This document shows positions 1-19,093 of a DNA stretch of 64,000 nt, piece after piece. Each line of letters starts with the position of its first letter. Positions within the stretch are counted from its first letter, which is position 1. The notes beneath the pieces were generated by a model. That model made no database searches, was not told where the DNA came from, and was given only the letters and a program-made list of their open reading frames with translations. The stretch covers positions 7,017-71,016 of the forward strand of contig CAUSEX010000001.1 in assembly GCA_963531145.1 (NCBI GenBank). Direction: 5' to 3'. Both the position numbers and the translations under genes were made by a program. Source of the DNA: an uncultured Candidatus Saccharibacteria bacterium (GTDB lineage Bacteria; Patescibacteriota; Saccharimonadia; Saccharimonadales; Saccharimonadaceae).

Positions 1-2
1 TT

Positions 3-350
3 GTCGGAGCACCGCTCGAAAAAATGTGGCAGCAGCGCGGTCTAAACGTGCAGGTCTACGACAAGACGAATCCAGCTACCGCAGACAGTTTGCAAAAATG
101 TAACGTAATTGTAACAGCGACCGGCGTGCCGCACTTGATCACCTCCGAAATGATCGCGCCAGAAACAGTAGTGGTGGATGCTGGTACGGCGAGCGAAGGC
201 GGTGTGTTGGTCGGCGATGTTGACGATGCGGTTCGCCAGCGCAGCGATATTACGATTACACCGCAAAAGGGCGGTGTCGGTCCGTTGACATACGCAGTAT
301 TATTTGATCATCTGATTGAGGCGTGCTTGCGGCAAGTTGGTAAGTTATAG
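3..350 (+). CDS. folD: Methylenetetrahydrofolate dehydrogenase/cyclohydrolase, 5'-truncated by window edge
   Basis: Frame open from base 3 (VGAPLEKM...); motifs IVTATGVP, VVVDAG, LVGDV, ITPQKGGVGPLT typical of the FolD C-terminus. Confidence 0.9.
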   Translation, partial: VGAPLEKMWQQRGLNVQVYDKTNPATADSLQKCNVIVTATGVPHLITSEMIAPETVVVDAGTASEGGVLVGDVDDAVRQRSDITITPQKGGVGPLTYAVLFDHLIEACLRQVGKL

Positions 351-355
351 TAATT

Positions 356-730
356 CTATCGCTTATCGTTCAGTGCTTCTTTGGTGTGGATGACAACTTG
401 GCTAGGTGTTAGATTAGCCTTGACGATATAACTATGAATACCTAGGTTACGCAGCTCGGCAGGTGCCTCTTCTTCGCCTAGGTTGGTTAGAATGATAACT
501 GGCGTATTAGCATTAGCGGGTTGTTGGCGGATTTTTCGCAGAGCTTCGGTGCCGTTCATATTCGGCATTTGCAGATCAAGTAAAATAATGTCAGGATTAG
601 CGTGCTGAACCACTTTGACGCCAGTCTCGCCGTCGCTGGCAGTAACCACTTCGAAGCCGGCTGCTTCGAACTTCATGCGGTACATTTGGTTGATTACTTG
701 ATCGTCCTCGATAATAGCGATAGTTGTCAT
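356..730 (-). CDS. Single-domain response regulator (receiver domain)
   Basis: MTTIAIIEDD...IILLDLQMPNMNG...VIILTN...YIVK; start moved to ATG at 730, 6 nt after a TGnTATTAT -10 element. Confidence 0.9.
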   Translation of the reverse strand: MTTIAIIEDDQVINQMYRMKFEAAGFEVVTASDGETGVKVVQHANPDIILLDLQMPNMNGTEALRKIRQQPANANTPVIILTNLGEEEAPAELRNLGIHSYIVKANLTPSQVVIHTKEALNDKR

Positions 731-808
731 GTTTTTATAATAGCATATCCCAGTTACTTTTCGAGTAAGCTCTAGCGTTATCGTCGAGAAAAGTGTACTA
801 TAAAAGCA

Positions 809-2062
809 ATGAAGCGGTTTTTTGGTAGAGTTCGCCGTCCATCGTATCGTTCGCAGCAAGTTGTGGACGTTCTGACGCGCAAAATGGTTGATGCCAAAGA
901 CATTGATACATTGCTAAATAGCTATTTAGAAACTTTTGTTAGTGTACTGCAAGTACGTTTTGCTGGCGTGGCTTTTTGCGATCAATATCACCAGCCGTAT
1001 ATTGCTGGCAAGCGTAATGTGCCGGCATGGTTGGATTCGCAGACGCTTGGTTCTGGCGACATTGGTGATTATGCTCGATATGGTATTGCAGCAATCTTAC
1101 CGCTATGCGTTGCCGATCAGAAAATTGGTTGCCTGGTAATTGGCGAGCGGCGTGACGGCTGCGAGATTCGCGGTAAGGAATTTGAGCTGTTTGATGTTTT
1201 GGCGCGTAACCTATCGGTGGCACTTTTGAATATGTTTCGCCTAGAGGAGATCCGCCGCTTAGCTGGAAATTTAGAGAAGGAAGTCGATGAGGCGACTAGT
1301 CAGCTGCGCCAGTCCAACAAAAGATTGCAGGCCCTGGATGCCACTAAAGATGAGTTTGTCAGTATGGCCAGCCACCAGCTGCGGACGCCGCTGACTAGCG
1401 TAAAAGGCTACCTAAGTATGGTTCTCGAGGGCGACGCTGGCGAGATTACACCGCCGCAGCGGCAGCTGCTAGAAGAGGCTTTTCGCAGCAGCGAGCGGAT
1501 GGTGCGATTGGTTAGTGATTTTTTGAACGTGAGCCGTTTGCAGACTGGTAAGTTTATTATCAATCGTACAGCGGTCAATTTGTCGCAGCTGGTTGCCGAA
1601 GAGGTTGCGAACGTAGATCAGGTGGCAAATACGCATAAGGTCAAGGTCACGTATCGCCAGCCAGCGCGTTTTCCGCTGCTGTATCTAGACGACACCAAGA
1701 TTCGCCAAGTTATTATGAATTTCATTGATAACGCTATTTATTATTCACCAGACGCTAATACGGTAAAGGTCCGATTGTCAATTGAAGATGGCCAGGCAGT
1801 TTTGCGGGTAATCGATAGGGGAATGGGTGTATCGCCATCTGCCAAGAAAAAGCTTGGCACTAAGTTCTTTCGCGGCGACAACGCTCGGCGGCAGCGGCCG
1901 GACGGCACGGGGATTGGCTTGTTCTTGGCGAAGAAAGTAGTCGAAGGGCATGGCGGTACGATGATTTTCGAATCGGAGCTCGGCAAGGGTAGTACTTTTG
2001 GCTTTCGGCTACCGATTGCGGAGTTAAAGTCGCCGCCAGCTCTAGACGGCAGCAAAGCATAA
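809..2062 (+). CDS. Sensor histidine kinase (GAF-like + HisKA + HATPase)
   Basis: H-box [10 protein letters not shown]-box [11 protein letters not shown]1 DRGMG, G2 GTGIGL, GSTFGF. Confidence 0.92.
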
Positions 2063-2079
2063 ATGGTATACTTTTATTT

Positions 2080-2523
2080 ATGAAGAGGAAGACGGGATTT
2101 ATCATAGGTGGCGGCCTGGCGGTTATAGCAGCTGTTGTCGCTGCGGCAGCACTGGGATATCTTTACGGCGGCGTAAAAACGCCAGAACAGCGCACGCTGG
2201 TTTACTATAATGTGTGCGGAAATGATATCATTGATAAGTTTAATGGTAGTATGTCTTCCCCTGATAATCTGAAGAAGATTGCTGGCGAAATAGAAAAAAA
2301 GAATCACTATGCTGATGACGCCACATGCGTTGTTGCTTTGTATTTTTATCATACGACCGCAGATGCGAACGGTCATAGCCAGAAGACGGACGATTTATAT
2401 AACAAAATAAAAAACCTGTCAGACAAAGGAATATACGCTAGCGGCAGGCTGAAAGTGCCAGTTAATGTTGAGCAGTTAAATTTGCTGCGCAGCAAACAAT
2501 CAGTTCCGGAGAATAAGCAATAA
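2080..2523 (+). CDS. Hypothetical membrane-anchored protein
   Basis: 147 aa ORF, N-terminal hydrophobic helix, TGnTATACT 7 nt upstream, stop overlaps the next start (TAATG). Confidence 0.75.
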   Translation: MKRKTGFIIGGGLAVIAAVVAAAALGYLYGGVKTPEQRTLVYYNVCGNDIIDKFNGSMSSPDNLKKIAGEIEKKNHYADDATCVVALYFYHTTADANGHSQKTDDLYNKIKNLSDKGIYASGRLKVPVNVEQLNLLRSKQSVPENKQ

Positions 2524-5306
2524 TGCACGAGGGGCTGCTGCGTGGCTTGAAGTGGTGGCTTAGCTGTTTTGTTATTGTAGCGGCCGCAGGTGTTGTTTGT
2601 TTGCTGAGAAGCGATACGTCGTATGCAGTTTATGGTTGGAATTCTGGACGTAACGATATGGAGAAGCAAGCTTGGAATGGTGATCCTTGCGGCGATTATA
2701 TTAATCACCCGTGCGCTGTCTGGTGGGCGTCTTATCATAATACGAACTATTTCAGTATGGTGGGGTCTTCGCCGACCAACCCGATCGAGATGGACTGGAA
2801 TGCAACAACACTATATTTTACTATACGAGGCTCGTGGAATACCCAACGATTTCGTAATCCAATTAGAATTTACTCTCTTTTCACTTTCAACGGGCAGGGC
2901 AGGTCTGTTTGGGTAACTAATCCAGCAGGTCATATAGACGGCAACGGCAATTATTTCTTTAATAGGGGCTATTATGGCGGCGGCGGTCCTGAATATCAGT
3001 GGATAAACGGTGAAAGCGAATGGGATCAGTTAAATCTAGGAGCTGACGTTAACGGTGTCGCTCAACCTGGCGGCCCGTCAGAGCTGGTTACGTTTGGTGC
3101 AAAAAGCTGTTTGGCGGTCATGAGAGGTAATAAAGTATACACTTATAGCGGTTCTCATGTTAACTGCGGTACCGATAATATCTCGCTGTGGGTACGCCGT
3201 AAGCCGCGACCTAGCGGCTGGAAAGTCCAAGGCGAAAGCTATATCTATAATCGTTCCGACAACAAGACTTATGCGAATTATAATAATTCTAACGCTTTTG
3301 GTACTTCTCGCCCGTACGCTGAACGCCATCTAGAAGGTAAGCCTGATGTTTTTCCTGGAAAACAAGCCGAATTTATAGCGACTCTTCGGAATACTCCATA
3401 TTCAAATTATCAGCATACAACATCTAGTGTACAAGTGGTTATAGAATCAGCGTATTTTAATAATCTGCACGATGTCGCTAGCTGTGCCGGTAAGGATTGG
3501 CGCCATTGCGGTGGTAGTAATAATGGACATAGAGTTCTCATTGCACGCGGAGCGGTCAGTAATATTTATAACAATAAATGCCGGTCGGCGCTTAATAACT
3601 TAGTGCAAAGTCCTAATAATACAAATACTTGGAGTGGTCGAGACGGCGACGATTGTATGAAGATTCGCGTGCCTAGCGACGGCAGTCGAGCGGGGTCTTA
3701 TATATGTACGCAGATATGGTGGACGTGGCCTGATTCGGTGGTGCGTCGAGACTGGGCTTCAAGTGAACCTGCTTGTGCGAGGGTGGCGTCTGACTTCAAT
3801 TTGGTGCCAGGAGTTGGTTCGGCGGGCGGGTCAACGGCTATTGGCGTACTAGAACAAGGTAATGCGACAACGCTAGATAGCACTATATACAATACGGGCG
3901 GGCGTCGCGAAGCTGGCGGCAGTAGTGATGCCGATGTCTTTACGTTTGCCTTCACTGGATCGGCTGCGGAAATGTCGGATGGTCAACTGGGCAGTATGCT
4001 AAATAGCATATTCAATAAGAATGACGGAGACAGGCATTATGCCGATACGACCTATGGCGCAGGCGTGAATACATGCTCTTGGCTCAACTCTCAGCCCCAG
4101 TTGTCTGGTAAAATTAGCGATTGTACGCCAACAAATAACAAGCAGAGTGCTTTTGACAGGACTGAAGTTATTGATACATCGGCGCTTGATACGGCACGAT
4201 ACAAGATTGGCGATGTAATTTGCCGGGTAGCTACTGTTAATAAGTATAACTGGGATACAACGGGAGATTCTTCAAAACGCCGCGTATCGTATCCGCGTTG
4301 CTACCGTATTTCCAAGAGGCCAATGGTACAAGTCTGGGGTGGTGATGTGCGCGTCGGGTCGAGCAATATCGCGAATGCTTTAGTCACCCAACAGTATAAG
4401 TCGGGTATCTATACTGGCGGCGCGCGTACGCTGACTATGAGTGGCAATACTCATTCGATCGGCAGCTGGGGTGAGTATGGTATGTTTGCGCCAGAAATTT
4501 CCTCGTATAGCCGGTCAAATGTTGTGTCGGCATCAGGAGGTGCTCTTTCTGGCATGGGTACGACATCGCGGTTGGGCATAGCGGCAGATAGCGAGTTAAA
4601 TGGTCTAACATTTGCCAATAATAAGGCTAGATATGGGCAATGGGGAACTATCGGCGCGCAAAATACTGTCAAATCTAGTTATTTTGGCACTCAGCGTCCG
4701 TTGGCGGGCGAGAATATTTCGCTTAACGGATTAGATGGCTCGTACAAATTATCATCGTCGCGAGCAATCGTGAATTTGTCGGGCGGCACTGTTGGAATGG
4801 GTAGATCGGTTATCATTGATGCTGGTGACAAGACGGTAGTTATAGATGGTGATATACGTTATGATACTGGTAGCTTCTCTAGCGCTAGCCAATTGCCGCA
4901 GGTTGTGATATATGCGCGCAATATCATTGTTAAGGATAACGTGACTAATATCGATGCTTGGTTAATTGCTTCGGGTACTAATGCTGGCGTGGGTGGTGTA
5001 ATTTCTACCTGCGAAGTTGACGAGAGCGGTGTTCGATCAGCATTGATCCGATCTGATTATACTAGCGGATTGAAATCGACGGTTTGTGACAAGCCGTTAC
5101 AGATTAATGGGGTAGTGTCGGCGCGTGTTTTGCAGCTGCGCCGTACTCACGGAGCTGACGGTTCGGCTGGCAATGAGAATGGTTATACCACGCCAGCGGA
5201 GATTATTAACGCGCGGATGGATACGTACTTGTGGGCCTATAATAAAGCTAACGCAAACAGTTCTATTTCAACCGACACCACAACCGAGCTGCCACCGCGG
5301 TATTAG
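2523..5306 (+). CDS. Large exported Cys/Gly/Ser/Asn-rich protein, putative adhesin
   Basis: 927 aa ORF, N-terminal signal/TM segment, paired cysteines, beta-rich C-terminal region ending ELPPRY; function inferred only. Confidence 0.7.
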   Translation: MHEGLLRGLKWWLSCFVIVAAAGVVCLLRSDTSYAVYGWNSGRNDMEKQAWNGDPCGDYINHPCAVWWASYHNTNYFSMVGSSPTNPIEMDWNATTLYFTIRGSWNTQRFRNPIRIYSLFTFNGQGRSVWVTNPAGHIDGNGNYFFNRGYYGGGGPEYQWINGESEWDQLNLGADVNGVAQPGGPSELVTFGAKSCLAVMRGNKVYTYSGSHVNCGTDNISLWVRRKPRPSGWKVQGESYIYNRSDNKTYANYNNSNAFGTSRPYAERHLEGKPDVFPGKQAEFIATLRNTPYSNYQHTTSSVQVVIESAYFNNLHDVASCAGKDWRHCGGSNNGHRVLIARGAVSNIYNNKCRSALNNLVQSPNNTNTWSGRDGDDCMKIRVPSDGSRAGSYICTQIWWTWPDSVVRRDWASSEPACARVASDFNLVPGVGSAGGSTAIGVLEQGNATTLDSTIYNTGGRREAGGSSDADVFTFAFTGSAAEMSDGQLGSMLNSIFNKNDGDRHYADTTYGAGVNTCSWLNSQPQLSGKISDCTPTNNKQSAFDRTEVIDTSALDTARYKIGDVICRVATVNKYNWDTTGDSSKRRVSYPRCYRISKRPMVQVWGGDVRVGSSNIANALVTQQYKSGIYTGGARTLTMSGNTHSIGSWGEYGMFAPEISSYSRSNVVSASGGALSGMGTTSRLGIAADSELNGLTFANNKARYGQWGTIGAQNTVKSSYFGTQRPLAGENISLNGLDGSYKLSSSRAIVNLSGGTVGMGRSVIIDAGDKTVVIDGDIRYDTGSFSSASQLPQVVIYARNIIVKDNVTNIDAWLIASGTNAGVGGVISTCEVDESGVRSALIRSDYTSGLKSTVCDKPLQINGVVSARVLQLRRTHGADGSAGNENGYTTPAEIINARMDTYLWAYNKANANSSISTDTTTELPPRY

Positions 5307-5357
5307 CAGTTGTTTATTGCGCAAATAAGGCCAATCTGTTAAGATATCTGTAAGTGC

Positions 5358-5432
5358 GGCCTTATCGTCTAACGGTTAGGACACCAGGTTTTCATCCTGG
5401 CAATCCGGGTTCGATTCCCGGTAAGGTCACCA
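5358..5432 (+). tRNA. tRNA-Glu(TTC)
   Basis: Cloverleaf: acceptor GGCCTTA/TAAGGTC, anticodon arm CCAGG-TTTTCAT-CCTGG, T-arm GGTTCGATTCC, encoded CCA. Confidence 0.97.
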
Positions 5433-5442
5433 TTATGGAATC

Positions 5443-5465
5443 AAGAGGCTCTTTGGAGTCTTTTT
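5443..5465 (+). terminator. Probable intrinsic terminator after tRNA-Glu
   Basis: AAGAGGCTC-TTTG-GAGTCTTTT hairpin running into a T tract. Confidence 0.6.
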
Positions 5466-5610
5466 GTTTGTCCTTCAATCTGTAAAACATAGTCAAACTG
5501 TACGCTCCAAAGTTGAGATTCATTATGACGTAGATATATAATTTAGTTTTTGTCATTACAAACCGAGACCTCTATGGCCTTATTATCAATAATGTTTGGT
5601 ATAATGATAG

Positions 5611-5748
5611 GGTCTGGATTAAACAGTTAGATAAAAGCAGGTCTCTCGGAGATTCAGTTGAGCTGTAAAAGCGACAACTGTACGAAAGACTTAAGGAGCT
5701 CAACTCTTTCTGTTTGGTCCAGACAACCTAGTACGGTTGTCGTTTTTT
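5611..5748 (+). ncRNA. Candidate structured leader RNA / attenuator
   Basis: Follows TGGTATAAT (5597-5605); nested 15-bp and 9-bp stems, terminator hairpin plus T6, and a competing 17-bp pairing. Confidence 0.65.
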
Positions 5749-5772
5749 ATTATTTAACAGAAAGGAAGTAAA

Positions 5773-6279
5773 ATGAATAAAAAGCTTGGACCCGGATCAT
5801 TGCTTATCTTGAGCCTAGTGCTACTATATACAAGTGGCGCGGTCGAAGGAGCTCTAGGAGTAGGACTTGGCGTAGGTGGTCTAGTATGTCTAGTACTGGG
5901 AATTGTAGGTGGAGCAAAGAAGCTTTTCAAGGGTGGTGATAGTATAGAAAAACGAACTAGATCCACAGCCCGTGCAATACTATCAAGCTTTCTATTGGTG
6001 CGATCAGAGTGTAATTACCCTATCGAGTCACCTTCAGATAAAATTCGAATATATACTCACATATTGAAAATACGAGGATATAATGATGATGCAGTCAAAG
6101 GACTTATACACGAAGCTAAAAAGATTAGCGAAGTAAGGGACTCCGTAAAAGGTATTAGCTTAAATACATTGGTGCATGTGTTGGTGTCTCATGAATACAC
6201 AAAGGACACGCATAAAGAGCTGACGGAATCACAACTAGAGATAGTTGATAGAGTACTAAGTCAAATATATAGGGCGTAA
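5773..6279 (+). CDS. Hypothetical membrane protein (island)
   Basis: 168 aa ORF, AAGGAAG SD-like site, two N-terminal hydrophobic segments. Confidence 0.75.
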   Translation: MNKKLGPGSLLILSLVLLYTSGAVEGALGVGLGVGGLVCLVLGIVGGAKKLFKGGDSIEKRTRSTARAILSSFLLVRSECNYPIESPSDKIRIYTHILKIRGYNDDAVKGLIHEAKKISEVRDSVKGISLNTLVHVLVSHEYTKDTHKELTESQLEIVDRVLSQIYRA

Positions 6280-6280
6280 T

Positions 6281-6916
6281 ATGAATGCAGCAAGTATAGA
6301 TTGGCTAATGGTTCTAGCTTTTGCAATCATTGGCGGTGGTTTTATCGGGCTTGTAATGGGTCATAAGATTAAAGACGGTCCAGTAAAAGTCCTTACTACT
6401 CCTATGATATTTCAGACTGGTGCAACTAATACTGTTCTGATAGTTATCGGACTAAGTCTTATTGCTTTATGTTTTACAGTAAGCATATGGCACGGTGTGG
6501 CCGCTATAGCTTTAGGCTTTATAACCGAGTCCTTCGTTGGCGCTAAGGTGATGTATGATGAAAAAGGCGGTATCGGTAAGGCTATTAAAACAACCATCAT
6601 CCTTCTGCTCGTGGTGTGTCTACCTTTTGGAGGCTACCAATACCACCAATATAACCGTTCACCAAACGAGAAAGACAAGTTGACCTTTATATATGAGTGC
6701 GATGAGTATTATACAAACGAGGTATTTAAGAGTGAGCGTTCACGAGATACAGCAAAAGCTATATGTAATTGTTTATGGCCGGATTTAGTCGGTAAATATG
6801 GAACTATGGGAAAAATTAATGATGTAGCTAGATGGAGTGGTAGCGTAACTCATGGAGATAAAGAATTCAACCACATGAGCAAAGTGTGCTTGGATAATTA
6901 CCGCAACAGGAATTAA
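6281..6916 (+). CDS. Hypothetical multi-pass membrane protein with Cys-containing C-terminal domain (island)
   Basis: 211 aa ORF, about 4 hydrophobic segments then YEC...CNC...VC. Confidence 0.75.
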   Translation: MNAASIDWLMVLAFAIIGGGFIGLVMGHKIKDGPVKVLTTPMIFQTGATNTVLIVIGLSLIALCFTVSIWHGVAAIALGFITESFVGAKVMYDEKGGIGKAIKTTIILLLVVCLPFGGYQYHQYNRSPNEKDKLTFIYECDEYYTNEVFKSERSRDTAKAICNCLWPDLVGKYGTMGKINDVARWSGSVTHGDKEFNHMSKVCLDNYRNRN

Positions 6917-7442
6917 CATAAATAAAAATAGATAGCCAAAACTACTAGAATTCGACGATTCTATCTCTGTTAAATTACTATAATCGGCAATATACACTTA
7001 TTTGTATGCATATACTAGACCATCCAATTTTTCCATAGCACGAGTTTTGTATAAATTGCCACTAATTTCCACAGATAGCTAATATCTATTGACTGTTAAG
7101 CTGGTAGCACCTCCCACACCCACCTGTAAGAGCATATTTCGAAACTACCCCTTTGTTTTTATGAAGCTAATATAGATTAATCCCATAGAATGCAAAAAAG
7201 TGTATAGCGCTCATCATAAAATGCTGCTAGTGGAGGATACGCTGATTAGTTTCAGTACTGTAACGGATGTATTATGCCAGAGATAAACCCCTCATAAGGT
7301 GATGTAGCCGCCTGAGTTTCATAAGGATATCGTTCCAATTCGATTCAACGACATTCACATATAATATAACTTGCACTTGTCAAGTACGTTCTAGTCTAGG
7401 CGTACTATTTTTGTGGAATATATTAGAGTATAATAGCTATCT

Positions 7443-8870
7443 ATGAGTAATACATTTAAAAGGACTAAGATACTGGCGACTCTGGGGCCAGCCACAAATT
7501 CACCAGAGAAAATCAAACAATTAATTGAAGCTGGCGCAAATGGCTTTCGTTTGAACTTTAGCCATGGATCGTACGAAGAACGGCTCGATCAGATCAAGTG
7601 GATTCGTGATGCTAGCGCCGAAGTTGGCCGAACGGTAGCAATCTTGCAAGATTTACAAGGACCAAAAATTCGTCTCGGCGTTCTAAAGAATAACCACTTA
7701 GATGTTAAAGCTGGCGACGAGATCGTTCTCGATCATGCAATTCAAGAACACGATGGTAGTACGAATTTGCCGATTCAATATAATCTAGCTAACAAGGTTA
7801 AGGTCGGCGAGCCAGTCTATCTGTTTGACGGCAAGATTCGCGGCGAGATGATTGAGCGGGTTAGCGATACAGCAATCAAGATTCGTATTCTGAACGATGG
7901 ATTCTTGATGAGCCGTAAAGGCTTGAATCTGCCAGACACCGACTTTGGCGGCGATATTTTAACGCCAAAAGATTTGGCTGACGTAGAGTTTGGCGCCGAT
8001 AAAGATATTGATTTTGTAGCCCTCAGTTTTATTCAGAGCGCAGACGATATCAATAACTTGCGGCAGATTATGCTAAGCCACGGTTCAACAGCACAGATTA
8101 TCGCGAAAGTTGAGACCAAAGCAGCTATCGAGATGGAAGCGCTCAAAGAAATAGTTAAGGCTGCTGACGGCGTGATGATCGCGCGTGGCGACTTAGCGGT
8201 CGAGACTAGCCCCGAGATTGTACCGATTGTTGAGCGCGAAGCAATTCGCTTGTGTCGCAAATACGGTAAACTATCAATAGTGGCAACGCAAATGCTAGCT
8301 AGTATGGTCGATAATCCAGAGCCTACTCGCGCCGAAGTTAGCGATGTAGCAACAGCAGTAATCCTCGGTACTGATGTGGTGATGCTCTCTGATGAGACAG
8401 CTAACGGTAGTTATCCTGTCGAGGCAGTCAAAATGATGGCCAAGACGGTGCGCTACACGCAGTCGCGCTGGCCGATGAATGACATGCCGATTGAATATGG
8501 CGAGAAGAACCGCCGCCGTAATGCGATTGCTAATGCTGCGGTAGTAGTAGCCAACCAAGTAGACGCCGATGTGATTATCGCCGAAACTAAATCTGGCGCG
8601 ACGGCTGCGCGGATTGCGGCTTGCCGCCCAGAGCTGCCAATCGCTGCGGTAACGCCGAATAAGCGTGTGGCTCAACAGTTAGCTTTGTCATACGCTACCC
8701 GCTCATATGTGCGCGAAGAGGGCGAGCATGTTGGTACAAAATTAGCCAAAGAATTGCTTGATTGGGGTACTTTCGGGCGCGATGACAAATTGACCGCGGT
8801 TGTTGTCAGCGGCCGTCAGTCGGGTGTAGCCGGCGGTACCGACACATTGCGTGTGCGTGTTGTTGAGTAA
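7443..8870 (+). CDS. pyk: Pyruvate kinase
   Basis: RTKILATLGPA, RLNFSHG, DLQGPKIR, AKVE, MIARGDL, ATQML.SM, MLSDETA.G. Confidence 0.98.
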   Translation: MSNTFKRTKILATLGPATNSPEKIKQLIEAGANGFRLNFSHGSYEERLDQIKWIRDASAEVGRTVAILQDLQGPKIRLGVLKNNHLDVKAGDEIVLDHAIQEHDGSTNLPIQYNLANKVKVGEPVYLFDGKIRGEMIERVSDTAIKIRILNDGFLMSRKGLNLPDTDFGGDILTPKDLADVEFGADKDIDFVALSFIQSADDINNLRQIMLSHGSTAQIIAKVETKAAIEMEALKEIVKAADGVMIARGDLAVETSPEIVPIVEREAIRLCRKYGKLSIVATQMLASMVDNPEPTRAEVSDVATAVILGTDVVMLSDETANGSYPVEAVKMMAKTVRYTQSRWPMNDMPIEYGEKNRRRNAIANAAVVVANQVDADVIIAETKSGATAARIAACRPELPIAAVTPNKRVAQQLALSYATRSYVREEGEHVGTKLAKELLDWGTFGRDDKLTAVVVSGRQSGVAGGTDTLRVRVVE

Positions 8871-8891
8871 AATACAACAAAAATTTAAGAG

Positions 8892-8917
8892 ACACCTCGC
8901 TTGTGGCGAGGTGTTTT
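8892..8917 (+). terminator. Intrinsic terminator after pyk
   Basis: ACACCTCGC-TTGTG-GCGAGGTGT-TTT. Confidence 0.8.
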
Positions 8918-8991
8918 CACGCAAAAAACTAGACGAGCTTTAATAACTGTAGTAAACTAGACGCAAGGGTAAACATAAGCAAGTATAAAAC

Positions 8992-9777
8992 GTGGGCAAG
9001 AAACTTATTATTGCAAACTGGAAAATGAACCTCACTGTCAATGAGGCGAGTTTGTATGTTCATAAACTCGACAAGCTGGTTGGCAAGCTCAAAAATACTG
9101 AGGTAGTGCTGGCACCGACCATGTTAGCGCTCCAGCCGCTTAATATGCAGGTGCAACATCATCACTTTAACCTGGCAGTGCAGAACTTTTATTGGCGTGA
9201 CAGCGGTGCTTACACTGGTGAGGTATCGGCGTCGCAGCTGCGCGGTATCGTACAATATGGCATAATTGGCCACAGCGAGCGCCGGCATATCTTTGCTGAG
9301 CGCAGTAAAGATATTCGCAGCAAAGTGCAAGCGGCAGTACGTAATAATATTACGCCTGTATTGTGTATTGGTGAAACAGCGCAAGAACGAGCCAACAAGG
9401 AAACGTCTGATGTAATTCGCGATCAATTGGTGGGAGGACTAGCTAATATCACGAGCGTTGAGGTTGGCCAGATTGTTATAGCTTATGAGCCAGTGTGGTC
9501 AATCGGTACTGGTAAATTCGCTTCACCGCGCGACGTTGAACGCGCCGTTAAATATATTCGTCGGCAAATTGAGCATCTTTTCGGTAAGGTCGCTGCCGAG
9601 AATGTCCGTGTGCTTTACGGCGGTAGCGTTAATCTTGATAACGCTATGTCGTATTTGCAAACAGCTGGTGTAAATGGTTTGCTTATCGGTGAATCAAGTT
9701 TGGATGTCTATGCTTTTGCTGGTATTATCAAAAAATGTGAAGATATGCCATCCTTACCAGTAGAGAGAGGTAAATAG
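8992..9777 (+). CDS. tpiA: Triosephosphate isomerase
   Basis: ANWKMN, GAYTGEVS, GHSERR, AYEPVWSIGTG, YGGSV. Confidence 0.97.
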   Translation: MGKKLIIANWKMNLTVNEASLYVHKLDKLVGKLKNTEVVLAPTMLALQPLNMQVQHHHFNLAVQNFYWRDSGAYTGEVSASQLRGIVQYGIIGHSERRHIFAERSKDIRSKVQAAVRNNITPVLCIGETAQERANKETSDVIRDQLVGGLANITSVEVGQIVIAYEPVWSIGTGKFASPRDVERAVKYIRRQIEHLFGKVAAENVRVLYGGSVNLDNAMSYLQTAGVNGLLIGESSLDVYAFAGIIKKCEDMPSLPVERGK

Positions 9778-9779
9778 CT

Positions 9780-11285
9780 ATGACAGAATTCGACTTCGAC
9801 GAGCTAGATCGTTCAATTACCGAGGCTATGTCCAAGAGCGGATTATTAAAAGAGGACGACCAACATGCTGAGACACCAACGCCGCCGGCTGTCTCTACGC
9901 CTTCAAATCCTTCCTCTAATACTGCGCCAGTTTCAGTTGAGCCTAATAAATTAGCTCCTGGTCCTGGTCCAGTTGCGAATATGACGGCTTCGCCCTCGCC
10001 GGCCGCAACGGTTGGTGTCGCTAAGCAGCCAAGTTCATCTTTATCAACAGCTAGCGTACCGGTTTCGGCTGCAGTTCCAGCACAGCCAGCTGTTGGGGTG
10101 TCTACCGCTCAGATTCAGACTTTGCCAACAAATGGTGCTTCAGCTTCGACTGGTGTGTCGGTCGCCTCTCAGGCTTCTACTGCTGTTCAAAATTCGGCTC
10201 TAAATAGTTCAGTACCGTCGCCAGCTCCCCAGCCGTTGCCGCAAGCCGCAACACCGCCGCAGGTAGTGGCAATTGGCGGAGCTGTGCCAGTCCGATCGGG
10301 ATTACCAAAAAAAATGAAGACTAAGAGTCGCGGCCGTTTCATGGACATAGTTAGTTCGCAGCCAGGTGTCAACAAACACCCCGCCAGCAAAGTTAAGTAT
10401 TCTACGATGCCGGCACAGTCGTTAAGTAATGTATCATCTAATATTTCTGGCGGCTCGTCTCAACAATTAGGGTCAACTGGCCAGCGAAGCGCTCAGCGTC
10501 TTGCTGCTAGTTCTACTCAGTTTAGTTCTAACGAAAATGTAGCAGCAAATACAAATAACGTTTCTAGCGAACTGCAATCGTCTGAATCGCGAGTTTTTCA
10601 CGGTAGCAGCGCATTGTCTCAAGCTTCACAGTCTAATCCTGGTTTTGAAGACAAAAATGATTATGATGAAGCAGACGACAGCAAAAACGAAAAAAGATCG
10701 TATTCTATCGGCGGTACACACGGTAGGGATATTGCACCGTCTGCCGAGCTTGTTGAGTCGCTACAGAAAGACGCGCAAGATGCTAGCAACGAGATTGGCT
10801 TTTCGCAAGCAGAATCGCGAGCTAACGACATTCAATCAATTGAGGACGCTTCAGCCGAAAACGATGAAGATGACGCTAGAATACAAGACGCGCCAGCTCC
10901 TAAAAAACATCGGTTTATGCCAATTGGCGGCAAGCCAAAGCCTGTTGAAAAAACTCTTAACCCTCCTGCTGCCGAAGCTCCTGTTGCTAATATAGAAAAT
11001 GCGAGCGAGCAACCCGAGCAACTAGCTGAACCTCTGACAAATCAGACGGTAGATTCGCCTGTACAGTCCGCTACTACAGAACCAGATCCGCCCCGCGAGC
11101 AAACTATCGACGAGATTGAATCAGGCGCTATTTATGACACTTCTGAGTATTACACTGAATTCAAAGACGACAAGAAACATAAGCAGTCGCGCCATTCAGG
11201 CTTAAAGTGGTTTTTGGTGATTATAGTGTTCTTGGCCTTGGGCGCACTAGCTGGCGCTGGGTATTTCTTCCTGACTCGCTACTAA
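9780..11285 (+). CDS. Hypothetical low-complexity protein with C-terminal membrane anchor
   Basis: 501 aa Ser/Pro/Ala-rich then acidic; basic patch followed by a hydrophobic helix at the C-terminus. Confidence 0.8.
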   Translation: MTEFDFDELDRSITEAMSKSGLLKEDDQHAETPTPPAVSTPSNPSSNTAPVSVEPNKLAPGPGPVANMTASPSPAATVGVAKQPSSSLSTASVPVSAAVPAQPAVGVSTAQIQTLPTNGASASTGVSVASQASTAVQNSALNSSVPSPAPQPLPQAATPPQVVAIGGAVPVRSGLPKKMKTKSRGRFMDIVSSQPGVNKHPASKVKYSTMPAQSLSNVSSNISGGSSQQLGSTGQRSAQRLAASSTQFSSNENVAANTNNVSSELQSSESRVFHGSSALSQASQSNPGFEDKNDYDEADDSKNEKRSYSIGGTHGRDIAPSAELVESLQKDAQDASNEIGFSQAESRANDIQSIEDASAENDEDDARIQDAPAPKKHRFMPIGGKPKPVEKTLNPPAAEAPVANIENASEQPEQLAEPLTNQTVDSPVQSATTEPDPPREQTIDEIESGAIYDTSEYYTEFKDDKKHKQSRHSGLKWFLVIIVFLALGALAGAGYFFLTRY

Positions 11286-11301
11286 CGCGATATAATAACT
11301 A

Positions 11302-13416
11302 ATGATGGATATACTTGATGGTCTTAATGACGCGCAGAAAGCAGCTGTCGCTTATACAGACGGTCCGTTGTTGGTTTTGGCGGGCGCTGGCAGCGGCAAA
11401 ACCAAAACCTTAACCCACCGCATAGCTTATCTATTGACACACGAAAGAGTCTGGCCGAACGAAATTCTGGCGGTGACATTTACTAATAAAGCGGCTCGCG
11501 AGATGCGCGAGCGCTTGGCGGCTTTGATCGATCAGCCTAATACGCGGCAATTCATGCCGTGGATGGGTACATTTCACGGGATTTGCGTGCGAATTTTGCG
11601 GCGCGACGGGCCGGCGATTGGTGTGCCGTCGAATTTTATTATTTATGATGAAGCCGACCGTCAAGGATTGATCAAGCAAGCGATGAAACAGCTGTCAATC
11701 GCTCCAGATAAACTCAAACCACGTTCAGTTAGCGCGGCAATTTCTAACGCTAAAAATGATTTACTCACGCCAGATGATTACGCGGCAGCTGCGCAATATC
11801 CAAATCAGCAGCATATCGCTAAGATTTATGATAGGTACGAGCAACTACGTAGCGAGGCTGGCGCGCTAGATTTCGATGATTTGTTGATCGAGACGGTGCG
11901 TTTGCTGCGCGATGCCAGTGAAATTCACCAAAAGTATCGCCAGTATTTCAAGCATATTCTCATTGACGAGTACCAAGACACTAACGCTGCGCAGTATGCT
12001 ATCGTTAAGTACTTAGTCAACGATGCGCGTAATATTTGCGTGGTCGGCGACGATTGGCAGTCGATTTACAGCTGGCGCGGGGCGGATTTCAAAAATATTC
12101 TTAATTTTGAACGGGACTTTCCTGGCGCAAAGGTAATCAAACTGGAACAAAACTATCGTTCAACAGGTGCTATCCTAGAGGCGGCGCAAAAGGTTATTGC
12201 CAAGAATGTTGAGCGGACTGACAAAAATCTCTGGACAGCGGCTGGCAATGGTGCGCCAGTACAAGTTCAGGCGGTACGCGATGAGTCCGAGGAGGCTTAC
12301 GTGGTGGCAAGTCGTATTGCGGCTCAAACCTCGATTGGTGCTCGCCGCTACGGTGATTTTGCAGTATTGTATCGTACTAATGCGCAGAGTTTTGCTTTTG
12401 AACGTGCCTTCATGCAGCAAAGAATTCCATATCAATTGGTTGGCGGCGTGCGCTTTTATGATCGCAAAGAAATCAAGGACATTATCGCCTACTTGCGTTT
12501 ATTGTATCAACCGAACGACCGGATGAGCTTTAGTCGAATTGCCAATGTGCCAGCTCGCGGTATCGGCGCGACTAGTCTAGAGAAATTCTTACGATGGCAA
12601 AACGATAACAATATGGACATCATCGCTTCGCTGGTGAATGTCGAGCAAACTAGCGTTTTGACGCCGCGCGCCAAAAAATCGTTGCTACACCTGGGCGAGA
12701 TTTTGCGCGAATTGCAGGCGCTTGTTCTTTCTGATACTAGTCCAAGCGATATTATTGAAAAGCTACTTGAAAAGATTGCTTATCGAGATTATGTCATCGA
12801 TGGAACACCGCAGGCTGAAGAGCGTGATGATAATTTGAGCGTACTCATAGCGGACGCTAAATCTTTCGCGACATTGCCAGACTTTCTCGAAGAGGCAGCG
12901 CTAATGAGCAGCGTCGATCAGCAAAGTGATGGCGAAAAGGTCACATTAATGACCTTGCATGCCGCTAAAGGACTGGAATTTCCGGTGGTTTTCATGGTCG
13001 GTATGGAGGATGGCTTATTTCCGAGCGAGCGAGCGCTTGAAGAGGGTCCGCGCAATCTCGAGGAGGAGCGGCGCTTGTGCTACGTGGGTATGACGCGGGC
13101 GCGTGAAGAGCTATATCTGTTGTACGCGCAGAGCCGTGCGCAATTCGGCCTGCGATCGTACAATCAGCCGTCGCGTTTTCTCGACGATATGGGCATGGGA
13201 TTGTTCGCGGTTGAACCTAACGCTATTGATTCGAGTCCAGTTTATAATGATTTTGATGAGCCAGTAATGAACTATGATATTGGCGATCGAGTGCGCTCGC
13301 TGCAATTTGGTGATGGCGAGATCATTGACATTGATGGCTTGGCAGTTAGCGTGAAGTTCGATAACGGTGCTGTCAAAAAGCTCAACGTTGAATACGCTCG
13401 CCTCGAGAAGCTGTAG
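11302..13416 (+). CDS. pcrA: UvrD/PcrA ATP-dependent DNA helicase
   Basis: LAGAGSGKT, TFTNKAA, IDEYQDTN, VGDDWQSIYSWRGA, LEQNYRS, TLHAAKGLEF, YVGMTRA. Confidence 0.97.
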   Translation: MMDILDGLNDAQKAAVAYTDGPLLVLAGAGSGKTKTLTHRIAYLLTHERVWPNEILAVTFTNKAAREMRERLAALIDQPNTRQFMPWMGTFHGICVRILRRDGPAIGVPSNFIIYDEADRQGLIKQAMKQLSIAPDKLKPRSVSAAISNAKNDLLTPDDYAAAAQYPNQQHIAKIYDRYEQLRSEAGALDFDDLLIETVRLLRDASEIHQKYRQYFKHILIDEYQDTNAAQYAIVKYLVNDARNICVVGDDWQSIYSWRGADFKNILNFERDFPGAKVIKLEQNYRSTGAILEAAQKVIAKNVERTDKNLWTAAGNGAPVQVQAVRDESEEAYVVASRIAAQTSIGARRYGDFAVLYRTNAQSFAFERAFMQQRIPYQLVGGVRFYDRKEIKDIIAYLRLLYQPNDRMSFSRIANVPARGIGATSLEKFLRWQNDNNMDIIASLVNVEQTSVLTPRAKKSLLHLGEILRELQALVLSDTSPSDIIEKLLEKIAYRDYVIDGTPQAEERDDNLSVLIADAKSFATLPDFLEEAALMSSVDQQSDGEKVTLMTLHAAKGLEFPVVFMVGMEDGLFPSERALEEGPRNLEEERRLCYVGMTRAREELYLLYAQSRAQFGLRSYNQPSRFLDDMGMGLFAVEPNAIDSSPVYNDFDEPVMNYDIGDRVRSLQFGDGEIIDIDGLAVSVKFDNGAVKKLNVEYARLEKL

Positions 13417-13473
13417 CAAAATAATCAATCTTTTGCTATAATTATGACTGCGCGCTAGTTTGCGCGCCTACGT

Positions 13474-14655
13474 ATGAAAAGTATTGCGAGAATGAAATTA
13501 CGTTGGCTGATAACCGGCTCTATGTTGTTAGCTTTGGCTGGATTGTCTGTTTATACAGCAATTATGCCAAAAGCCCGGGCTGACGAGCGTAACCTAGCGG
13601 TTGGTGAGCATATCATTACCGTTCATGATGACGGTCAAAGTAAAGGATTTATTACCAAAAAACAGACCTTGCGCGAAGCTCTCGCTGAGGCAGCTATCAA
13701 ACGAGGTCGTAACGAGCGGACCGAGCCAAATATTGATGAGCGCTGGGTAGCAAATTCATATAACGTTAATATTTATCGAGCCCGAACGGTGGTTGTCAAG
13801 GATGGATCTCAGCTCACTAAAATTATTACATCGTACCGTACTGGAAAGCAGATAGTTAAACAAGCTGGCATTGCTGTACGCGATGAAGATATTCTAACCT
13901 TGTCACAGTCCAATAGTCCAATGCGCGATAGTGCAGCAGAAGTACTGTCTATTAAAAGAGCAGTCCCGTTTAACTTTGATTTTTATGGTAAAAAGGCCAC
14001 TTCTTACACGCAAGCTCAAACCATCGGCGAAATGCTAGCCGAGAAACATATCAAAATGTCTGCCAATGATATTATTATCCCGAATAAAGATACAAAAATA
14101 TCTAGAGGCATGGATGTCCGCTTGTATCGTAACGGCACGCAAACAGTTACCGTTGACGAAGATATACAGTTTGAGACTGAACAGATCAAGGATGTTAATC
14201 GCGATAAAGGATACAAAGAAATTCAAACTAAAGGGGTTAACGGCAAGCGTACAGTTACGTATGAGATTAACGTCCAAAACGGCGTTGAAGTATCACGCCG
14301 CGAGATCAATAGCAACATTATTCAGCAGCCAGTTAAGCAGGTAGAAGTTGTTGGTACTAAAGTTAGTCTGCCGGCGGGCTCGCATGAAGATTGGATGGCG
14401 GCGGCTGGTCTTTCGCCAAGCGACTATGGTTACGCTAACTTTATTTTCACTAAGGAGTCTGGTTGGCGAACAACAGCGACTAACGGCACATATTACGGCT
14501 TGGGGCAGACTAGTTTATCGAAATTGTCGAGTGCTTGTCCGAATTGGCAGGCTGATCCAGTTTGCCAAATTAGAGTGTTTAATGGTTACGCGGTAGGGCG
14601 CTATGGCAGCTGGTCGGGTGCTTATAACGCCTGGCAGGCTAAGGGCTGGTGGTAG
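13474..14655 (+). CDS. RpfB/YabE-like protein: DUF348-type repeats + G5 + lysozyme-like (Apf-type) C-terminal domain
   Basis: Signal/TM; G5-like 'IQTKGVNGKRTVTY...IIQQPVKQVEVVGTK'; C-terminal KESGW...YGLGQ...RYGSW...GWW. Confidence 0.82.
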   Translation: MKSIARMKLRWLITGSMLLALAGLSVYTAIMPKARADERNLAVGEHIITVHDDGQSKGFITKKQTLREALAEAAIKRGRNERTEPNIDERWVANSYNVNIYRARTVVVKDGSQLTKIITSYRTGKQIVKQAGIAVRDEDILTLSQSNSPMRDSAAEVLSIKRAVPFNFDFYGKKATSYTQAQTIGEMLAEKHIKMSANDIIIPNKDTKISRGMDVRLYRNGTQTVTVDEDIQFETEQIKDVNRDKGYKEIQTKGVNGKRTVTYEINVQNGVEVSRREINSNIIQQPVKQVEVVGTKVSLPAGSHEDWMAAAGLSPSDYGYANFIFTKESGWRTTATNGTYYGLGQTSLSKLSSACPNWQADPVCQIRVFNGYAVGRYGSWSGAYNAWQAKGWW

Positions 14656-14665
14656 GATATTTTAT

Positions 14666-14694
14666 TTGACATTTGGTATATAATTTGTTATAAT
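14666..14694 (+). promoter_or_regulatory. Consensus sigma70 promoter
   Basis: TTGACA-17 nt-TATAAT with extended TG. Confidence 0.8.
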
Positions 14695-14710
14695 ATAAAA
14701 GATACAGTGG

Positions 14711-15781
14711 GTGATTTTGAATAAAATGAGCTTAAATCGATATTATCAACGCATTTGCTGTTGTGTTTTTGGTGCGGTCTTGGCAATCTCTAGTACTGGT
14801 ATGTTATCGTTTTTTGCGAATACTGCGGCGGCAGATAGTCCAGCTGCGGTTAAAGCACAACCATCTAGTCATATAATCACCATTTACGACGGTGGCCGGG
14901 AGCAATCGATAATCACTAAGGCATCGACAGTACAGAAAGCGCTAGAAGAATTCGGCGCAAGATTGGATAAACAGCATGATATTGTCGAACCGGGTCTGGA
15001 TACACCGATTACCAACAATGGCTTCAAAATAAATATTTATCGGGCGCGGACGATAACGATAGTCGAAGGTGCTCGCCGCATGCGAGTCAATACGGCAGCG
15101 CAGACGCCAACGCAGATTGCGCAAGCTGCGGGGATTGTTTTGTATCGCGAGGATAAAGTTCGATTTACGCCGCCAGAGGATGTCGCTTTGGATGGGTCGA
15201 GCTTGCTGATGATGATTACGCGAGCAACTCGGCGTACTGTGACTGCCGAGGAAGAAATTGATTTCCCGGTTGAGCAAACACGCGACGATAGCCAGCCTCT
15301 TGGTTATCGCCAGGTAAAGCAGGCGGGAGCTAAAGGGTTGCGCAAATTGACCTATAGAGTTGAAGCGCGCGATGGTGCTGAAGTTAGCCGTCAGCAAATT
15401 TCTAGCGAAATTATCAAGCAGCCCAAAAAGCAAATTGAAGTGATCGGTACCAAGCCGAAAAATCCGCTAACCAAAGGCAAGGGCGCGCAAATATTCACCG
15501 ATTCTAAAGGCGTGGCACACCGTGAAACCTATTATGATTTACCGATGAATATTGTTGCTAACGCCTGCGGCGGCGGTGGTTATACGGTGCGGACGGATGG
15601 CGCCAAGGTGGACAAGGACGGTTATATTTTGGTGGCGGCAAATTACGGTAATTATCCGCGCTGTTCGGTAGTGGAAACCAGTATGGGTCCTGGCAAAGTG
15701 TATGATACCGGCGGCTTTGCGGCCCGGCATCCGCATGGGTTTGACCTGGCGACTGATTGGACGAACGGGGACGGACGTTAG
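14711..15781 (+). CDS. RpfB/YabE-like protein: DUF348-type repeats + G5 + 3D-like C-terminal domain
   Basis: Paralogous N-terminus to the preceding gene; G5 'KQAGAKG...KQPKKQIEVIGTK'; C-terminal LVAAN...GKVYDTGG...FDLA; start codon uncertain. Confidence 0.78.
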   Translation: MILNKMSLNRYYQRICCCVFGAVLAISSTGMLSFFANTAAADSPAAVKAQPSSHIITIYDGGREQSIITKASTVQKALEEFGARLDKQHDIVEPGLDTPITNNGFKINIYRARTITIVEGARRMRVNTAAQTPTQIAQAAGIVLYREDKVRFTPPEDVALDGSSLLMMITRATRRTVTAEEEIDFPVEQTRDDSQPLGYRQVKQAGAKGLRKLTYRVEARDGAEVSRQQISSEIIKQPKKQIEVIGTKPKNPLTKGKGAQIFTDSKGVAHRETYYDLPMNIVANACGGGGYTVRTDGAKVDKDGYILVAANYGNYPRCSVVETSMGPGKVYDTGGFAARHPHGFDLATDWTNGDGR

Positions 15782-16570
15782 ATGGTGTTAGCGCGTGGGC
15801 CGAAAAAAGAATTAGGCCAGCACTGGCTGCGCGACCCAGAAATATTGGCGGAGATTGCCGAGGCGGCGGAGCTGAGTAACGATGATGTGGTTTTGGAGAT
15901 TGGGCCGGGACTTGGCACATTGACCAGCCGGTTGTTGGCGCGAGCTCAGCGCGTAGTGGCGGTGGAGTTTGATGGGGATTTGGCGCGCAAATTACCGGGG
16001 CAATTTCCTGGCAAAAATCTGGAAGTAATCAATGAAGATATTTTGCAGTTTGATTTGAATCAGTTGCCGAAGGGCTATAAAGTAGTCGCCAATGTGCCAT
16101 ACTATATCACCAGCAAAATTGTTGAAAAGCTGATGACGGCGGAGAATAAGCCGAGCTTAGCGGTGCTGCTGGTGCAAAAAGAAGTTGCTGAGCGTATCGC
16201 GGCGGAACCCGGTGAAATGAGTATTTTGGCGGTTAGCACGCAGCTATTTGCCGAGGCGGAGCTAGACATTGAAGTACCGCGGCAATTCTTCACGCCGCCG
16301 CCAAAAGTTGATTCGCAAGTGGTGGTATTGAGAACTCGCACCGAACCACTGGTCGACCCTAGAGATCACAAAGATTTTTTCCGCATCGTCAAAGCTGGTT
16401 TTTCGGCTAAGCGTAAAAAACTGCGCTCCAGCTTGAGCGGCGGACTGGGCGTCAGTAAAGCTAACGCCGAACAGTTGCTGAAAAAGGCTAACATTTCGCC
16501 TGATGTCCGTGCTGAGGATTTGGCGATTGATGATTGGCGGCGGCTGCTCAAAGAATGGCGGGCGCGATGA
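15782..16570 (+). CDS. rsmA: 16S rRNA m6,2A dimethyltransferase
   Basis: KKELGQHWL, LEIGPGLG.LT, VANVPYYITS, QKEVAERI, FTPPPKVDS, FSAKRKKL. Confidence 0.95.
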   Translation: MVLARGPKKELGQHWLRDPEILAEIAEAAELSNDDVVLEIGPGLGTLTSRLLARAQRVVAVEFDGDLARKLPGQFPGKNLEVINEDILQFDLNQLPKGYKVVANVPYYITSKIVEKLMTAENKPSLAVLLVQKEVAERIAAEPGEMSILAVSTQLFAEAELDIEVPRQFFTPPPKVDSQVVVLRTRTEPLVDPRDHKDFFRIVKAGFSAKRKKLRSSLSGGLGVSKANAEQLLKKANISPDVRAEDLAIDDWRRLLKEWRAR

Positions 16571-17313
16571 TTGCGGCAGATCAGCCCGTCTGCTTTCCGT
16601 CTGATCTGCTCATTGCGGTCTCGTCGAAAGACGACGGCACCATGCTCAATCGTATTCGCGGTCGTCACGTGGCTGAGGTATTGGAGAATCGGCATCGGTT
16701 TTGCGATCAAATTGGCGTTAAGTATGACGACGTTGTTTATCACGTGATTTCATATGATCGAGCGCAAACTTTTGATAATATTGCCGAAGTCACTGAAACT
16801 GACACGGTTAAATACAACAACGAGGGGATTTTTGCTGACGCGCTATATACCGAAATGGCTGGCGTCGGCTTATTTTTACCAGTGGCGGACTGTATCGCCA
16901 CCGTCATCTATGATCCAAAACGCCGCGCCCTCATGCTGGCGCATTTGGGTCGGCATTCGACGGTTGCGCAGTTGATGACAAGGGCAGTCCAGTATTTTGT
17001 CGAGCGTGGCAGCCAGGCAAAAGATTTACAAATTTGGATGTCGCCAAGCATCACACAGAAAAATTATCGTATGGATTATTTTAATCATACAAATGATACG
17101 AATTGGCACAATTTCTGCCGTCAAACGGCTGACGGAATTTATCTGGACATGCAAGGATTTAATCGTTCGTTGGCTGTCCAGTCAGGCGTTCCGGCTAATA
17201 ATATTGTCATTTCGCCAATTGATACAGCGGATGATCCAAATTATTTCTCACATTCAGCTGGTGATACAGGGGGAAGATTCGCAGTGCTAGCAGAGATAAA
17301 ATCTACTAAATAA
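16567..17313 (+). CDS. PgeF/YfiH (polyphenol oxidase/laccase-domain) family protein
   Basis: ADALYT, VADC, AHLGR, SPSI, YFSH; ATGA overlap with the rsmA stop. Confidence 0.8.
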   Translation: MIAADQPVCFPSDLLIAVSSKDDGTMLNRIRGRHVAEVLENRHRFCDQIGVKYDDVVYHVISYDRAQTFDNIAEVTETDTVKYNNEGIFADALYTEMAGVGLFLPVADCIATVIYDPKRRALMLAHLGRHSTVAQLMTRAVQYFVERGSQAKDLQIWMSPSITQKNYRMDYFNHTNDTNWHNFCRQTADGIYLDMQGFNRSLAVQSGVPANNIVISPIDTADDPNYFSHSAGDTGGRFAVLAEIKSTK

Positions 17314-17403
17314 GCTCCAAGACGTCATGGCAATGTTGCGTGCCATCTTTGATTAGCATTAGTATATTGCTAAAAAAATAAAGTATAAGTATAATGGTAC
17401 CAA

Positions 17404-18897: not shown

Positions 18898-19093
18898 GCG
18901 AAACGTCCGTAATATAGGCAGGGAAAGCGAAAAGATGGCTTCTCTACTATTTCCAGAAAACTAGTGTCGAATCAGGAAATATCAAAGACGAAAATTAGTT
19001 CAAGATGTAGGCTCGGTTGTTGCTGGTCAGGTTTGTATTGCGGGATGATAATGTGCTAGTAAACTTCTGTCGCCTCTGATATACTTAGAAGCA

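Follow-up and report, generated by a model that had tools for sequence, protein, structure and literature searches.

Transcription attenuators of the trp/pyr type are built from leader segments that form 1:2, 2:3 and 3:4 helices, and in retron msr-msd and type III toxin-antitoxin systems a reverse transcriptase or toxin gene lies directly downstream of the RNA. Four further systems were compared, each as described in the accessible part of the source article. The zipper attenuator cATT of pLS20 belongs to a 456-nt leader before a conjugation operon, and its extension covers the 5' stem and the loop (PMC13401043). In P4 CI RNA and Gifsy-1 IsrK, the leader RNA acts in trans on its own transcript, CI causing premature termination (PMC4825925). 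EGeRS1 of pLS20 is several hundred bases long, GC-rich and devoid of a constitutive promoter (PMC8708921), and in the HMP-PP (thiS) and fluoride riboswitches a pseudoknot and a terminator hairpin are mutually exclusive (PMC6478431, PMC12667848).

We analysed a 64,000-nt stretch of Candidatus Saccharibacteria DNA (the window), which is contig C1 of the 0.83-Mb genome G000. The comparisons below indicate that a folded RNA of ~135 nt in the window is real, conserved and without a counterpart in the RNA family catalogue. The leader is predicted to run from 5612 to 5749 on the + strand, as are all features given here, and to yield a terminated transcript of ~137 nt, its ends being placed by the -10 spacing and the U-run. 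Upstream lie the tRNA-Glu(UUC) gene that would serve as the integration site of the islet (5358..5432) and, 3' of the tRNA, a terminator-like hairpin that would insulate the leader (5443..5464). The extended -10 element TG-n-TATAAT (5597..5605; TG at 5597-5598, TATAAT at 5600-5605) stands 6 nt before G5612. The RNA opens with the 5' strand of P1 (5612..5631), whose first bases GUC constitute segment a and hold the GAC of segment b, and continues through the variable side hairpin P2 (5640..5654) to P3 (5657..5704, pairing 5657-5664 with 5697-5704), which closes the apical loop. Displayed in this loop are an A-tract and segment d, the partner of the tail (5667..5683, with d at 5672-5683). The 3' strand of P1 (5705..5724), with AGAC at its end, is followed by segment b (GACAACC, 5722..5728), which is the 5' arm of the local hairpin and has its first 3 nt in common with P1. 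Segment c (5731..5742) comprises hairpin-loop nucleotides, the 3' arm and a spacer base, its partner being d or b, and leads into the terminator U-run (5743..5748). Two open reading frames follow, one of 168 aa with N-terminal hydrophobic segments (5773..6279; SD-like AGGAAG at 5763-5768) and one of 211 aa that is multi-pass membrane-like (6281..6916). Neither belongs to a family, and neither received a Pfam, PADLOC or Atlas assignment. A second sigma-70-like promoter match (11/12) occurs at 5513-5542, ~60 nt upstream of the leader -10 box, and a 927-aa secreted-looking protein without a Pfam match is encoded at 2523-5306, directly upstream of the tRNA-Glu gene.

A preliminary description of this DNA had named the extended -10 element, an outer stem 5612-5626/5710-5724 of 15 bp with 2 G.U, a small hairpin at 5640-5654, and a hairpin at 5722-5741 followed by G and the U-run. 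Every coordinate it named for the leader matches the sequence base by base; the small hairpin is dispensable, being missing in 13/149 members of the family described below. Two of its helices needed trimming. The inner 9-bp stem 5656-5664/5697-5705 is present where it was placed, while covariation backs only 8 bp (5657-5664/5697-5704), and 5705-5707 more likely extends the outer stem via 5629-5631 than the inner one. Similarly, 5667-5683 can pair with 5731-5747 over 17 bp with 2 G.U as proposed, and within it the conserved, covarying part consists of the 12 bp that reach as far as the first U (5672-5683/5731-5742).

Judged by sequence and gene context, the leader appears to work like a terminator/antiterminator leader and is a member of none of the systems introduced above. 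It resembles trp/pyr-type attenuators in its chain of competing segments and its anti-antiterminator-like 5' pairing, but it carries no leader peptide or known binding protein, and one of the partners is enclosed in a loop, which would make the key helix a pseudoknot or an intermolecular duplex. No reverse transcriptase or toxin gene of the retron or type III toxin-antitoxin kind was found among 145 first downstream genes. Like cATT in the accessible text, it is a mobile-element leader whose long imperfect stem may reach at its base across the 5' arm of a terminator-like hairpin; unlike cATT, it shares only 3-4 bp with the hairpin arm while d takes the loop, the 3' arm is bound as far as the U-run by a segment of its apical loop, and its cargo consists of accessory genes (PMC13401043). 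The conAn1/conjugation operon that lies downstream of the zipper attenuator is absent, the first genes being DUF805, DUF4352, methyltransferases and unknowns. The mutual exclusion of pseudoknot and terminator hairpin is shared with the HMP-PP and fluoride riboswitches as far as these are covered in the accessible text, but the leader has no Rfam match or metabolic genes and its pseudoknot includes the base adjoining the U-run (PMC6478431, PMC12667848). With P4 CI and IsrK it has in common the plan of a short and a read-through RNA from a phage or satellite leader and a loop complement in the same transcript, d pairing with c of its own leader; it differs from the accessible description of these RNAs in showing no evident upstream target, processing site, downstream anti-repressor or replication gene, and no sequence match (PMC4825925). 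Finally, it is a multi-copy structured sequence ahead of variable mobile-element genes, as EGeRS1 is in the accessible text, but it is ~135 nt long and has a clear -10 box and U-run (PMC8708921).

Searched against the Rfam 15 covariance models, the element drew no hit at E<=10 (window 1-20000), and in 18 diverse member loci the RNA drew none at E<=1, so that the leader stayed without a family match and the suspected novelty held against this catalogue. The RNA founds a family of its own. BLAST in 101 genomes returned diverged copies, close homologues occur in records titled Saccharibacteria, and G000 itself carries three copies. Covariance model R1 found members in 40/105 genomes of the genus (up to 7 per genome), in 37/151 of the order and in 9/151 of the phylum, 5 of the 9 lying outside the order. 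The broader model R2 raised these numbers to 48/105 genus genomes and 11/151 phylum genomes, 2 of the latter (G202 and G225) being weak matches that look spurious on inspection. Pattern searches of genome_contigs yielded 51 fetched loci, of which 47 were tested after 4 duplicates of earlier loci had been left out; 37/47 scored, including 31 from Saccharibacteria, 2 from the Patescibacteria group and 1 from Berkelbacteria. Pattern matches outside Patescibacteria are attributable to chance, since none of the 9 named non-Patescibacteria loci scored, and these make up 9 of the 10/47 loci without a model score. All 43 metagenome loci scored as members. Among viral sequences, one scan gave 4/25 real loci, one of them adjoining terminase, portal and capsid genes, the first scan gave 5 pattern matches that were all due to chance, two further scans returned no member, and BLAST against annotated phages and plasmids gave no match. 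Once 6 mirror-strand and 3 truncated matches had been set aside, 165 matches resolved into 150 distinct members, and 18 further members were added for the helix-register, loop/linker/code and segment e counts. The family counts are not independent draws, since the genomes are related to one another and a pattern was used to pick several of the loci. Four truncated members (L263, L264, L265 and L132) keep the rod and loop and have lost the tail.

Across the family, 138/145 anchored members have a -10 box upstream of base 1 at a distance of 4-8 nt, most often 6-7, compared with 2-14% in shifted control windows, and 75 of these 138 also have the TG of an extended promoter. This spacing makes base 1 the likely start site. 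For the window copy, no RNA contig from 4 of 24 expression runs covered 5520-6287; as contigs carry no information on transcript ends, this counts neither for nor against transcription. A same-strand open reading frame lies within 150 nt of the RNA in 145/150 members, and 162/164 have 6-8 U within 8 nt at the U-run. The common architecture is a long rod of P1, an optional side hairpin and P3 with a loop on top, and all helices covary, including the long-range helix of 11-12 bp between loop and tail (5672-5683 with 5731-5742). With this helix included, 93.3% of cells pair and 30/42 pairs changed on both sides, compared with 72.7% pairing in shuffles and below 45% in slid registers; an independent member set reached 97.7%. 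The base of P1 is 99.6% paired, with changes on both sides in 5/8 pairs (7/8 in the independent set), and P3 is 95.7% paired, with such changes in 8/8 pairs. In the window, the folding energy of the leader has a z of -4.6, none of 200 shuffles being equally stable, and the fold is stronger on the + strand (-50.2 kcal/mol) than on the - strand (-44.3 kcal/mol). The preliminary view of a structured leader that acts as RNA, stands ahead of membrane-protein genes and can form, at its terminator, helices that exclude one another is supported. The association with serine recombinases and the inverted ends GTCT...AGAC might instead point to a DNA-level element such as a recombination site, a single-strand origin or a miniature transposon. 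We regard this as very improbable indeed, since the -10 spacing is fixed, a U-run is present, G.U pairs occur on one strand only, a ribosome-binding site stands behind the RNA, compensatory change runs throughout, and between the RNA and the ends of the element there are hundreds to thousands of bases.

The tail of the leader is contested. Segment b pairs with a or c, and segment c pairs with b or d. The b:c pairing is 97.8% complete, with compensatory change, and d:c measures 11-13 bp in 133/164 members. The 145 members contain 59 distinct 12-mers of c, each matched by its own d, and the variable d:c pairs show 7-32 changes per column on a tree built without those columns. Taken together, the sequence comparisons suggest a transcription attenuator that most likely decides whether transcription stops. 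Which helix stops it is a separate question, for which the register against the U-run is informative. In 153/164 members d:c stops precisely at the first U, compared with 8/164 for b:c. In 24 members b:c ends 2 nt short of the U-run, and d covers both bases in 21 of them. Ordinary end-of-gene terminators of G000 reach the first U in 26/31 predicted sites, and most of them are preceded by an A-tract, as d is. Since d:c thus occupies the same register as ordinary terminators and b:c rarely does, d:c is the likelier of the two to be the terminator, a reading to which we give a little less than even confidence. The polarity first proposed, in which the local hairpin terminates and the loop pairing antiterminates, is accordingly reversed in part in our reading, because family-wide the terminator register belongs to the loop pairing.

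At the final position ahead of the U-run, 144/145 members retain a pair (GC 84, CG 52, AU 4, UA 3, GU 1), with ~13-14 changes there on a tree from which these columns were left out, and the base opposite the first U is free, 58/149 members being unable to pair there. The last base before the U-run sits inside the RNA:DNA hybrid at the decision point, and it therefore matters for a terminator stem, whereas an antiterminator would not need it. The b:c pairing is reduced to 5-6 contiguous bp and a mismatch in L266, L268, L272, L277 and L278, with d:c still at 10-12 bp. P1 leaves b:c just 4 free pairs in most members, and the local hairpin without the bases shared with P1 averages -3.1 kcal/mol, compared with -18.8 kcal/mol for the d:c duplex. 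In the window, the 7-bp and 4-bp states of b:c are equal in energy when P1 is present (-44.0 vs -44.1).

Several observations count against d:c as terminator. In 11/164 members it stops short of the U-run. The local hairpin alone is terminator-like, with mostly 6-8 bp, a mean of -9.5 kcal/mol and a U-rich tail, and b:c is itself conserved with compensatory change. The local hairpin should also fold faster than a long-range pseudoknot, the loop-enclosed strand would have to enter the exit channel, and selection on the released RNA could instead account for the last base being perfectly paired. The comparison with ordinary terminators covers only 31 predicted sites. In favour of d:c, antisense oligonucleotides paired up to the U-run can trigger release. 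The opposite assignment, in which b:c terminates and P1 closure with the d:c pseudoknot antiterminates (by default ON, or stabilised by protein, RNA or ion), is a possible reading that we nevertheless doubt. It takes b:c at face value as the conserved hairpin ahead of the U-run, P1 and d jointly remove both of its arms, and the window folding energies place d:c, together with P1 and P3, level with b:c or better. Precedents exist in the accessible text of the source articles, namely the tested zipper mechanism, where the base of a long stem extends over the terminator 5' arm (PMC13401043), and the pseudoknots that compete with terminators in fluoride and HMP-PP riboswitches (PMC6478431, PMC12667848). 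It leaves unexplained, however, why d pairs exactly to the first U and no further, why b:c so seldom reaches the U-run, and why b:c decays in some clades while d:c holds.

With d:c as terminator, the leader would be an attenuator for the accessory operon of integrative elements in which four segments compete for tail c. The comparisons show the promoter spacing, P1, P3, b:c and d:c, and in many members c:e, where e is a segment just 3' of the U-run; the order of events that we infer is as follows. Transcription would start at G5612, and P1 and P3 would fold first. P1 would take the GAC of b and leave the local hairpin with 4 bp, upon which the loop-displayed d would pair with the hairpin-loop bases of c and zip 11-12 bp to the first U. 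This pseudoknot helix would act as the terminator stem and release the short RNA (OFF). If d were blocked or too slow, or P1 unclosed by the 5' end, b:c would shield c; ending 1-2 nt short of the U-run, it would terminate poorly, and the membrane or restriction-modification genes would be transcribed (ON). In the read-through RNA, e, or perhaps the initiating ribosome in members without e, would remove c from d. Most likely, the switch is set by polymerase speed or pausing, or by a loop-binding RNA or protein that the element or a phage makes, and d may act in cis or from another molecule.

Segment e pairs with its own c in about a third to a half of members. At <= -10 kcal/mol, e:c was found in 78/167 members, compared with a mean of 30 with other members' downstream DNA, 11 with shuffled sequence and 10 in the next window, and at <= -12 kcal/mol the corresponding numbers were 55, 14, 3 and 1. 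Since e is present solely in the read-through RNA, its occurrence suggests selection for keeping c away from d in the mRNA. The window copy lacks e, and the ribosome-binding site is nearer in members without it (median 15 vs 30 nt). Because the tail of the short RNA would be hidden in b:c and that of the mRNA in c:e, both RNAs would display d, and this d could bind the tail that is still exposed on newly made transcripts and so terminate them. Such a split intrinsic terminator, its 5' arm held in a distant hairpin loop and suppliable by another RNA molecule, is in our estimation rather unlikely; segment e motivates this trans model and is not proof of it. Cross-reactivity below -14 kcal/mol is about as frequent among co-resident copies (16%) as among random pairs (19%), so there is no code divergence among them beyond random, and no trans target of d elsewhere in the islands rose above shuffled controls in 14 wide loci (16 tried, 2 without an anchor). 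Nor was there a positive correlation between rod length and helix or linker length of the kind that would prove a cis pseudoknot. If the trans reading is true, it would provide protein-free feedback or an establishment timer, with a burst of methyltransferase and membrane/defence genes in a naive ultra-small cell followed by self-silencing, and the variable 4-6 nt code would set specificity between elements.

The released short RNA might instead be the product, with a pseudoknot that buries its own 3' end to make a stable decoy, an antitoxin-like or a protein-binding RNA, and with the cargo expressed by fixed leak-through. The A's opposite U2-U4 are conserved (139, 130 and 117 of 149), so the whole tail can be covered, and helix length (11-12 bp) and the linker from P1 to c (6 nt in 83/149) are tightly held. 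We consider this quite unlikely, given that segment e matters solely in the read-through RNA, that d has no target beyond the shuffled controls of the same 14 wide loci, and that no partner gene is conserved: Pfam names 56/145 first genes from many unrelated families (DUF805 10, DUF4352 8, DUF4190 4, N6/N4 methylase 4, SHOCT 3, FtsK-gamma 3, and single matches including Ltp, TM2, bPH_2 and type IIG RM) and 89 match none.

The preliminary description had also entertained a riboswitch-like switch. A riboswitch for a small molecule, for example a signalling nucleotide or an ion, with the d:c pseudoknot as aptamer, would account for the few unpaired positions that are conserved (the G.U in 141/145, A-rich bases after d, CUA before c), and terminator-embedded aptamers exist according to the accessible text of PMC6478431. 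The reading is improbable and a metabolite riboswitch unlikely, as there is no Rfam riboswitch match, the competing pairings account for almost all conserved bases, the G.U is replaced by A-U in 3 members including the window copy and in a clade with the 5' end GUUC, and the cargo lies on mobile islands without a common metabolic theme. A likeness of the loop to the c-di-GMP-I aptamer was dropped, there being no Rfam match and a different pairing partner.

Members of the family sit on serine-recombinase islands ahead of variable membrane or restriction-modification genes. A large serine recombinase lies within 7 kb in 12/19 wide loci, often at a tRNA, and a recombinase fragment occurs in 46/150 short loci, in 34 of the 46 upstream and divergent. 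G000 encodes just two large serine recombinases, and its two other copies of the RNA, at G000:C3:45620 (L055) and G000:C20:2080 (L056), are found 3.8 kb and 0.4 kb away from them; the C20 copy leads a DNA methyltransferase gene. In the window, the term island proposed for this locus is supported by low GC (0.38-0.41 at 6001-8000, compared with about 0.47) and by relatives whose tRNA-Glu site is occupied by another family member with different genes, among them G056, which retains a large serine recombinase there; no att repeats were seen around the islet. The islet carries no recombinase and is taken to be a remnant at tRNA-Glu. By a crude hydropathy measure, a hydrophobic segment is present in the first downstream gene of 114/145 members, compared with 271/824 genes of G000, and RM, Lamassu-, Ppl- and IetAS-like genes occur in leader-bearing islands. 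The membrane cargo may resemble prophage exclusion or moron genes.

Further features of individual islands were noted. In L254 (3546-8137) and L241 (1-4285) the RNA heads an operon that ends in a serine recombinase; the surrounding contigs are phage-like and also carry genes for a tyrosine integrase and an endolysin-like protein, which makes this an element nested in a phage. Related transposase-like open reading frames (phrog_25593) are inserted within ~0.4-0.8 kb downstream of the RNA at L246:863-1744, L221:8113-8976 and L231:10681-11736. ParB-methyltransferase genes recur in islands L224, L225, L230 and L222, the last with a terminase-small-subunit match, and their recurrence suggests phage-satellite-like elements. 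Finally, L007 (1340-1470) and L019 (1340-1410) have a common GC-rich inverted-repeat motif upstream of the leader promoter, located in L007 between promoter and recombinase.

We found no published description of the leader family, which is apparently undescribed, though the supplements of large screens may contain it. The main text of two 2026 genome-language-model preprints makes no mention of Saccharibacteria, CPR or TM7, and their supplements may hold the motif as an unnamed cluster. In PMC8040213, nothing fitting appeared among the first 30 of 210 Saccharibacteria mentions or in the DUF805/DUF4352 table rows, and the accessible part of the Patescibacteria review PMC11665869 mentions riboswitches only as future tools. 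Gene regulation in Patescibacteria has barely been described, and the leader, strongly covarying and of short, directly testable design, would be an RNA switch native to these bacteria and widespread on the mobile islands that hold their defence and accessory genes. Should the long-range helix prove to be the terminator, a pseudoknot or a duplex made in trans would constitute an intrinsic terminator, and we found no report of this geometry. The leader could also serve as a native expression-control part for the newly tractable Patescibacteria.
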